Shown: positions 4,579 to 4,917 of the stretch, piece after piece | Position numbering within the stretch: position 1 is the stretch's first letter | Layout: each line of letters begins with the position of its first letter | Origin: a virus | Lineage: Duplodnaviria > Heunggongvirae > Uroviricota > Caudoviricetes | DNA length: 27,163 bases | Virus record (IMG/VR): IMGVR_UViG_2531839527_000008 | Reading direction: 5' to 3' (one strand) | Program-made: the position numbers and the translations under genes | The notes under the pieces: generated by a model | The model's database searches: none | What the model was told of the DNA's origin: nothing | Seen by the model: only the letters and a program-made list of their open reading frames with translations

Positions 4579-4917
4579 TTATTCCCAAAGTGCTGTTGCA
4601 GCATCCATTACAGGATCCAAAGGAATTTTTACGCCTGCATACTCCGGGCTATCTTTCCAAACAGTATCAATATTGCTCCCCTCAAGCTTTCCAGACTTTA
4701 CTCCATCAATCGCAAAACCATTTAATGGGTATCGGTCATCTGTTGCTTTGTCGTACACAAAGGCATATTTACCGTTGACACAAGACACCGTAGCTTTTTC
4801 AAAAGTTAACGGCCAATCCTCACCAAACTTAGCGCCATCTAAATCCTGTGTTTTTTCAGCGGCTGAGGCTCCAAAAGAAAGGGTAAGAAGCAGAGCTAAA
4901 AAGAGTTTACATTTCAT
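4579..4917 (-). CDS. small secreted (periplasmic) protein of the lysogeny operon, function unknown
   Basis: Start ATG at 4915..4917 with AAGGGA SD 4 nt upstream; predicted signal peptide MKCKLFLALLLTLSFGASA then AEKT; sits between cI and int on the same strand. Confidence 0.55.
   Translation of the reverse strand: MKCKLFLALLLTLSFGASAAEKTQDLDGAKFGEDWPLTFEKATVSCVNGKYAFVYDKATDDRYPLNGFAIDGVKSGKLEGSNIDTVWKDSPEYAGVKIPLDPVMDAATALWE

Follow-up and report, generated by a model that had tools for sequence, protein, structure and literature searches.

Which task falls to a small secreted protein whose gene sits between the immunity repressor and the integrase of a prophage, and would a lysogen make it? 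The question is raised by IMG/VR virus record IMGVR_UViG_2531839527_000008, a stretch of 27,163 nt of Caudoviricetes DNA (this whole stretch is hereafter called the window), in which an open reading frame (ORF) of 112 codons lies on the minus strand between cI and int. In the original prediction, made from the sequence alone, the product was taken to be exported, to be produced in lysogens and to belong to the lysogenic-conversion or superinfection-exclusion factors. In the analysis presented here, the DNA was assigned to a P2/186-like E. coli prophage, and its small gene for an exported protein was confirmed as genuine. Its product is, with strong support, a soluble, Sec-exported periplasmic protein of about 10 kDa with the YebY/MlbQ (DUF2511) fold. 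Equally strong support was obtained for the gene (hereafter the DUF2511 gene) as an integral, fixed member of the lysogeny operon (repressor, YebY-like gene, int) of PSP3-type P2/186-like prophages.

Gene layout and start codon

The cI stop codon TAA is found at positions 4928–4926, the DUF2511 gene extends from an ATG at 4917 to a TAA at 4581–4579, and the ATG of int lies at 4556. The gap from the cI stop to the DUF2511 gene is exactly 8 nt and that from the DUF2511 gene to int exactly 22 nt, so that the predicted layout of a 112-aa ORF packed between both neighbours was borne out by the coordinates. The Shine-Dalgarno sequence of the DUF2511 gene recurs as TAAGG[GA] in almost every related locus, and of the loci with int as the next gene, nearly all show the motif GCCTCGGTG, with small variations, in front of int.

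The list of ORFs also holds a longer frame of 136 aa for the same gene region, starting at 4989, which speaks for a mis-called ORF, i.e. one that is not translated from 4917 or whose product stays in the cytoplasm. In relatives of the L038 type, however, the frame is closed by a TAA 12 nt before the conserved ATG, which places the start at 4917, and the signal peptide must be N-terminal; the start at 4989 was rejected on these grounds. ATG and Shine-Dalgarno sequence are kept in nearly all loci; the loci also agree in length, in the architecture of the signal peptide and in being under purifying selection. The start at 4917, on which the original prediction depended, was thereby checked and is favoured by the conserved ATG and Shine-Dalgarno sequence along with the upstream stop in relatives. 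With a match to Pfam family PF10709 of 59.5 bits (cut-off 21) and a ratio of nonsynonymous to synonymous substitution rates (dN/dS) of 0.11–0.15 in the mature part, the frame is far from a chance ORF, and a mis-call was considered to have a negligible probability.

Conservation of the arrangement

The window contains a PSP3-type prophage (genus Eganvirus, Peduoviridae, with a 186-type switch) located beside yfiB-dgcN in E. coli. An annotated gene 100% identical to the window copy is present in E. coli genomes; its RefSeq name is 'DUF2511 domain-containing protein', and the annotation in phage Midge reads 'putative periplasmic protein'. For the comparison of gene neighbourhoods, 74 loci were used, consisting of 2 phage records, 4 E. 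coli genomes, 2 other genomes, 65 IMG/VR contigs and the window itself. A pattern scan of genome contigs gave two loci only, the back-translated patterns being clade-specific, and look-ups in IMG/VR, in E. coli genomes and of contigs were used instead. The upstream ORF ends 8–9 nt before the DUF2511 gene in 72 of the 74 loci, and the downstream ORF, usually int, starts 21–25 nt after it in 70. This tight repressor-DUF2511-int spacing persists down to a protein identity of 46%, and for the most divergent locus the identity of both neighbours was confirmed: a CI with two helix-turn-helix (HTH) domains and an integrase.

Orthologs with approximately 71–98% identity over the mature part (tblastn) were identified in PSP3 (orf28/gp28, NP_958085), SEN1, SW9, SI22, Midge, RCIP0057 and vB_EcoM-613R3 (PHROG 2950), annotated as 'DUF2511 domain-containing protein', 'putative periplasmic protein' or 'hypothetical protein'. 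The PSP3-type orthologs are likewise placed between cI and int, at the identical position and with the spacing of the window gene. Among 144 phage records with a 186-type CI, 10 carry a DUF2511 gene, and all 10 have a close PSP3-type CI.

What lies between cI and int varies among 186-like phages, in which this slot serves as a cargo site. In phage Cartapus (L085) it is empty and a RES-domain gene follows int, and in Klebsiella phage 4LV2017 (L084) it is filled by an unrelated hypothetical gene of 349 aa (1851–2900). An extra bPH_3/SHOCT gene follows the DUF2511 gene in loci L048–L051 and L075–L078. In L008 and L035, the gene upstream of DUF2511 is a different ORF of 134 aa, and the GCCTCGGTG motif also stands before the DUF2511 start; there, the gene thus lies between direct repeats, possibly the scar of a cassette insertion or of recombination. 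The repressor of the window is composed of two tandem PF07022 HTH domains (approximately residues 13–78 and 106–169) and a CI C-terminal domain. One PF07022 domain is present in the 186-type CI of L074, and the duplication is found in the distant relatives L072 and L079 as well. In an earlier comparative paper, only 'a longer C-terminal domain' was described for the CI of PSP3.

Signal peptide and probable export

The N-terminus is a predicted signal peptide, MKCKLFLALLLTLSFGASA, followed by AEK, with a rule-based cleavage site between ASA and AEK according to the -3/-1 rule. Its n-region is +2, no acidic residue is present, alanine is found at positions -3 and -1, and the hydrophobic core reaches a Kyte-Doolittle mean of 2.59 in the best 10-residue segment. 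The homologs have 30 distinct signal peptides, each of 19 residues and none with an acidic one; position -1 is A or S in 30 of 30, and position -3 is A, S, V, T or I. The signal-peptide segment evolves under relaxed constraint (dN/dS 0.46, vs. 0.11–0.15 in the mature part), and the mature part is under purifying selection with a dN/dS of about 0.1. After cleavage, a protein of 93 aa, 10.2 kDa and an isoelectric point of 4.4 would remain, with a single cysteine. The signal peptide with cleavage after ASA, as originally predicted, is supported by its architecture and by its conservation in the 30 variants; the mature length had been given as 90 aa and was corrected to 93.

The homologous YebY was located to the periplasm experimentally by fractionation (PMC8689200). 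The -3/-1 rule, the conservation among homologs and the location of YebY are strong indications that the phage protein, too, would be exported to the periplasm. A lipoprotein was rejected, there being no lipobox and no cysteine at the cleavage site, and a membrane protein was rejected in view of a mature part without any hydrophobic stretch.

Family and fold

By its sequence, the protein belongs to the known YebY/DUF2511 family (PSP3 orf28, PHROG 2950). The match to PF10709 (E = 4.5e-16) places residues 29–110 on profile positions 5–86 of 87, and PHROG 2950, a family without known function, was matched over the full length (E = 1.3e-51). The sole solved structure matched by sequence was that of E. 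coli YebY (PDB 7N0J; E = 3.4e-6). A search of the protein against NCBIfam returned no family, and a PADLOC search returned no defence family. A first AlphaFold model, built from 16 close homologs only, had a predicted local distance difference test (pLDDT) score of 66 and was replaced by an AlphaFold2 model with a 116-sequence alignment (pLDDT 90.5 overall, 96–98 in the mature domain). In the structure search, the weak first model had already retrieved YebY and MlbQ only. The fold of these two proteins, a four-stranded antiparallel sheet packed by helices, is seen in the model of the window protein; in the viral structure library BFVD, there was no match at E ≤ 0.001 and hence no structural link to a known phage protein. 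Three family residues are all present in the window protein, namely W35 (149 of 149 family representatives), which is the equivalent of YebY Trp37, and Y63 (145 of 149) and N66 (143 of 149), which form a Y-x-x-N motif. The homology and structure search proposed along with the original prediction was thus run, with the DUF2511 family and the YebY/MlbQ fold as its result.

Two members of the family have been studied. E. coli YebY is a monomeric periplasmic protein with a Cys48–Cys113 disulfide, whose expression was abolished when either cysteine was changed to Ala or Ser, and which binds copper weakly and only when reduced (PMC8689200). Co-expression of YebZ, a CopD-type importer, with YebY lowers copper accumulation, and a safety valve was proposed (PMC11923076). 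yebY is the third gene of the yobA-yebZ-yebY (AZY-type) copper operon, whereas the phage gene is part of a lysogeny operon: neither copD (yebZ) nor copC (yobA) adjoins it, its neighbours being cI and int, and likewise in nearly all related loci. The other studied member, MlbQ, is a lipoprotein for which binding of the lantibiotic NAI-107 was proposed (PMC8689200). MlbQ (PDB 2MVO, 6QFP) serves self-resistance to NAI-107 in Microbispora, has a long linker and is encoded in an ABC-transporter-linked lantibiotic cluster of a Gram-positive host; the phage protein, in contrast, has no lipobox, is surrounded by phage regulatory and integration genes and shares 21–23% identity with MlbQ. Some enterobacterial yebY homologs had been noted with a XerD-like recombinase on one side and a PF07022 CI repressor on the other, and were not read as prophage genes (PMC8689200).

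Link to immunity repressors in the wider family

An exhaustive profile search yielded 770 cluster representatives at E ≤ 0.001, and the genomic context was looked up for ten of the nearest. P0020 (L074) has a 186-type single-HTH CI and int as its neighbours; P0022 lies between a double-HTH CI and int (L079), P0023 after an HTH protein of 118 aa on a P2-like contig (L080) and P0028 after an HTH_3 protein of 149 aa (L088). P0025 is located next to gpD and P0030 next to ogr, both at the ends of P2-like genomes, and P0021 within a prophage remnant; P0024, P0026 and P0027 are on short contigs or in contexts that are not assignable to phage. At least six of the ten are in P2/186-like phage DNA, with no case of membership in a copC-copD operon. 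The nearest relatives examined form a separate, phage-linked group with approximately 30% identity to other family representatives. In P2-like phages, the DUF2511 gene associates with immunity repressors of several kinds and not with one type, and this link across repressor types speaks most strongly for a protein meant to be produced in lysogens.

In L075/L076 (1–5339), a prophage remnant with cI and a phage-type DUF2511 gene lies beside a chromosomal copC-copD-yebY, so that two DUF2511 paralogs are found on one stretch. The integration of a Yersinia prophage beside a YebY-family gene has been reported (PMC12653942). A functional link was rejected for this adjacency, the remnant having been inserted there; the site is probably an integration hotspot.

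Probable transcription in the lysogen

On the strand of the DUF2511 gene, no terminator-like site was found in or next to either gap, and the promoter scan gave no minus-strand match at threshold. The GC content of the gene (approximately 0.42–0.44) is like that of cI and int; two other cargo genes in the window are clearly low in GC. A self-contained moron was rejected, given the lack of an own terminator and of a threshold promoter, the GC content of the neighbours and the gaps of 8 and 22 nt. In phages 186 and P2, int is co-transcribed with the repressor. Since it is a genuine gene of the cI-int operon, no terminator lies in the gaps and the arrangement is conserved, expression in lysogens is naturally to be expected. 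The predicted production in lysogens is accordingly well supported, though inferred, by the tight packing, the lack of a terminator and the conserved arrangement.

A candidate lytic promoter pR and a candidate lysogenic promoter pL were located upstream of cI (Table 1). The candidate pL is kept in the majority of related loci, though it shares bases with the start of the apl-like gene. In P2-like phages, the lysogenic promoter faces the lytic one at a distance of 40–60 bp (PMC7498355), and by analogy with 186 and P2 the same would hold for this prophage.

The apl/cox-like gene (5908–6279, plus strand) is the first of the lytic operon and encodes a protein of 123 aa of the PSP3 gp30 type, for which no Pfam family and a weak HTH match (PADLOC mad1, E = 8.5e-4) were obtained; the PSP3 gp30-type protein was called a singleton among Cox/Apl proteins in an earlier comparative study. 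In the literature on PSP3, on P2-like regulatory regions and on YebY with prophage, no study of the phage DUF2511 gene was found. DUF2511 is mentioned in two proteomics papers, neither of which documents expression from the phage copy: one reports a peptide of chromosomal YebY type, and the other is not attributable to the phage gene as opposed to chromosomal YebY.

Loss of the disulfide cysteine

YebY has its Cys48–Cys113 disulfide, whereas the window allele is without the C-terminal cysteine: of the two cysteines of the family, Cys46 is present and position 111 is Trp. The C-terminus reads ...LWE, as compared with ...LC[ENKDQ...] in relatives, and a cysteine at position 111 was found in 69 of the 74 loci and in 139 of 149 family representatives. 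Among the orthologs whose C-terminus was read, it is present in PSP3, in Midge and in the IMG/VR loci other than L009/L010. Relative to the allele of strain 222, codon 111 differs by a single change, TGC to TGG. Because Cys46 lacks its partner, the mature window protein cannot form the C46–C111 disulfide of the family. C111W is a defect at the level of the allele and no reason to exclude the protein from the family. The W111 lineage also carries R3C in the signal peptide.

A search of 5426 complete E. coli genomes showed that 44 carry the DUF2511 gene. The band of ≥99% identity comprises 12 of these, 11 of them 100% identical to the window and hence with Trp; the 95–99% band comprises 7, of which all six listed are a 329-bp match at 97.0%. 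In the one genome of this band that was inspected (L004), the W allele is combined with a 10-bp deletion in the RYPL motif, which removes GATACCCATT, and RefSeq flags the gene as 'frameshifted'. Alleles with Cys, at approximately 94% identity, are found in 24 of the 44 genomes. At least 1000 contigs encode the exact W protein, and W111 is found in a second haplotype, too (P0001; R3, N90). Clonal spread or a tolerated change could account for this abundance.

The window copy is probably impaired (destabilised or non-functional) through C111W, a judgement held with slight preference, because a near-invariant cysteine is lost, cysteine mutants of YebY are not expressed and frameshifted sister W alleles exist. 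A stronger version, for which the chances appear evenly balanced, is that the gene is a decaying remnant in this prophage: C111W would have inactivated it, and it would be kept only as it lies between two needed genes, which is compatible with any function of the Cys allele. Decay is consistent with the Trp at a position that is Cys in nearly all representatives and phage loci, with the abolished expression of YebY upon mutation of either cysteine (PMC8689200) and with the added 10-bp frameshift in sister E. coli genomes, assigned to the seven of the 95–99% band out of 19 at 95–100% identity and checked base by base in L004. It is at odds with the abundance of the intact W allele on at least 1000 contigs and with the second W haplotype; besides position 111 and R3C, moreover, the lineage has no other unusual substitution, and AlphaFold still models the fold confidently, though this is silent on stability.

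Proposed function and alternatives

In the explanation preferred here, the DUF2511 gene would be transcribed leftward together with cI from the lysogenic promoter and, in establishment, from a CII-dependent promoter. Following translation from its own Shine-Dalgarno sequence, export and cleavage after ASA, the protein would be present in the periplasm of every lysogen, where it may serve as a non-enzymatic binding or blocking factor. Such a factor is suggested because the fold is without catalytic features and both characterised members act by binding on the outer side of the inner membrane. Its most likely task would be superinfection exclusion from the periplasmic side, directed against heteroimmune P2-like phages. 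Genes in immunity operons typically have exclusion or defence functions, e.g. lambda rexAB, and exclusion factors of the envelope include phage P1 Sim, which is periplasmic after signal-peptide processing, and the lipoproteins T5 Llp and phi80 Cor. Exclusion was favoured because the protein is tied to P2-like phages and follows the immunity repressor of whatever type, because of this typical content of immunity operons, and because envelope-located blocks of phage DNA entry exist. Among the latter are T4 Imm and Sp and HxsA (PMC13128918). By analogy with T4 Imm/Sp-like exclusion factors, the phage protein would share the logic of a small exported prophage protein, encoded in the immunity operon and acting in the same compartment; there is no sequence or structural similarity, and the resemblance is one of logic only. 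Taken as a whole, an exported, operon-borne YebY-like binding or blocking factor that excludes phages, with an impaired allele in the window, is the best explanation offered, although a tentative one that falls just short of an even chance. Exclusion of heteroimmune relatives as the specific mechanism is possible but rather doubtful. That phage YebY paralogs provide P2/186-like phages with a missing superinfection exclusion by docking, from the periplasm, on an inner-membrane protein needed for DNA entry by incoming P2-like phages, possibly YebZ/CopD, and closing this route much as YebY restrains the permease YebZ, is improbable at present.

The main alternative is lysogenic conversion through copper, in which the phage protein would act on CopD/CopC (YebZ/YobA), with less copper import and altered mar induction as the outcome. 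The homology to YebY speaks for it. However, none of the nearest relatives examined is in a copC-copD operon and most are in phage DNA; the sole cop adjacency (L075/L076) is a prophage remnant inserted beside an AZY operon; and the lineage is tied to P2-like phages beside the immunity repressor, a place that a general host-benefit gene does not need. In addition, the copper affinity of YebY is low and depends on reduced cysteines (PMC8689200). A role in copper handling was, on balance, regarded as unlikely. The fold shared with MlbQ would also fit an immunity to peptide toxins by MlbQ-like binding, at the envelope, of an antimicrobial peptide such as a bacteriocin, a microcin or a lantibiotic-like compound. 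Here, the lack of a lipobox or membrane anchor, unlike in MlbQ, the lack of ABC transporter or toxin biosynthesis genes nearby, the mainly Gram-positive targets of lantibiotics and an identity to MlbQ of only 21–23% make for a very small probability. What probability remains falls to functions not yet imagined.

Several points weigh against an exported exclusion factor made in lysogens. The candidate pL is a weak 8/12 match and overlaps a coding start, and no transcript, proteome or phenotype data were found for the phage gene. Neither PADLOC nor the viral structure library gave a match, and similarity to a known exclusion protein is lacking. Selection is strongly purifying and not diversifying, which is unusual for an arms-race factor and mildly adverse. 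As to impairment, the W111 allele is very common, so that it may be tolerated, and the phage clade may need the disulfide less than YebY does.

Features of the locus and other genes of the window

The coordinates of the locus are compiled in Table 1. Outside of it, a gene on the plus strand at 2554–3399 (GC 0.30–0.33; RefSeq version 810 nt, 269 aa) is absent from strain 222. Because it lies between the int stop and position 2338, from which the window is again homologous to the int/attL-yfiB junction of strain 222, it was assigned as extra cargo at the prophage end. Its product has the motif LRNDIIH (R-x4-H), which is HEPN-like, and weak PADLOC HEPN matches (RTasHEPN, E = 1.3e-4), with no Pfam family. 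A second gene, at 11902–12906 on the minus strand (334 aa, GC 0.35–0.39), is located between a DinI-like gene (10371–10604) and the portal gene (12984–14030), which in P2 is the position of the tin/old variable region. No Pfam or PADLOC family was obtained for its product, which contains an HELVH (HExxH-like) motif.

Table 1 Features of the lysogeny operon and its control region (window positions)
Feature	Positions	Strand	Basis and remarks
Tyrosine integrase int, 346 aa, closes the lysogeny operon	3516..4556	-	PF24624 and PF00589; PHROG 1
GCCTCGGTG motif within the 22-nt spacer, contains probable int ribosome-binding GGTG	4562..4570	-	Conserved before int
DUF2511/YebY-family pre-protein, coding sequence, 112 aa	4579..4917	-	ORF; PF10709; PHROG 2950; identical to RefSeq WP_001394631.1; PSP3 orf28/gp28 ortholog
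Mature 93-aa domain, YebY/MlbQ fold, codons 20–112	4582..4860	-	
Trp111 codon (TGG), YebY Cys113 position	4585..4587	-	Alignment, TGC/TGT in almost all relatives; comparison with strain 222
GATACCCATT, ten bases in the RYPL motif codons, deleted in the frameshifted sister allele	4724..4733	-	Alignment of window and L004
Cys46 codon (TGT), YebY Cys48 equivalent, unpaired in the window allele	4780..4782	-	Cys in 149/149 representatives; aligned with YebY Cys
Predicted Sec/signal peptidase I signal peptide MKCKLFLALLLTLSFGASA, codons 1–19, cleavage A19/A20	4861..4917	-	Rules; 30 homologous signal peptides; low-confidence N-terminal helix in the model
Shine-Dalgarno sequence AAGGGA of the DUF2511 gene, overlaps the cI stop	4922..4927	-	Sequence; conserved in relatives
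Immunity repressor cI, 286 aa, opens the lysogeny operon	4926..5786	-	Pfam domains; 97.9% identity to PSP3 CI
Candidate lytic promoter pR, TTTACA-17-TATAGT, 10/12 matches	5816..5844	+	Promoter scan; precedes the apl/cox-like gene 5908–6279
Candidate lysogenic promoter pL, TTGATT-17-CATTAT, 8/12 matches	5898..5926	-	Read by hand, below scan threshold; approximately 40 bp face-to-face with candidate pR

Significance

The gene, its family, the predicted periplasmic location and the cI/recombinase context were already on record in public annotation and in PMC8689200. Added here are the repressor-linked arrangement across repressor types, the largely P2-like-phage-linked group within DUF2511 that is formed by the nearest relatives examined, and an E. 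coli lineage which lost the disulfide cysteine and then, in some genomes, acquired a frameshift. At present, the gene is an annotated member of a known family and a clean, cheap experimental lead, for which the natural C111W allele and its frameshifted derivatives are ready loss-of-function comparisons in clinical E. coli lineages. If docking on an inner-membrane entry protein proved true, the general role of DUF2511 would be that of a 'periplasmic plug for an inner-membrane channel', and a host entry factor of the phage family would be identified. Establishing the function would take a Pfam family with hundreds of subfamilies (770 cluster representatives at E ≤ 0.001) out of the domains of unknown function. 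It would also explain why the gene is kept beside the repressor in PSP3-type prophages of Escherichia, Salmonella, Klebsiella and Enterobacter, and could reveal a phage-exclusion mechanism of the Peduoviridae or a phage-driven change in copper handling or mar-dependent drug tolerance.
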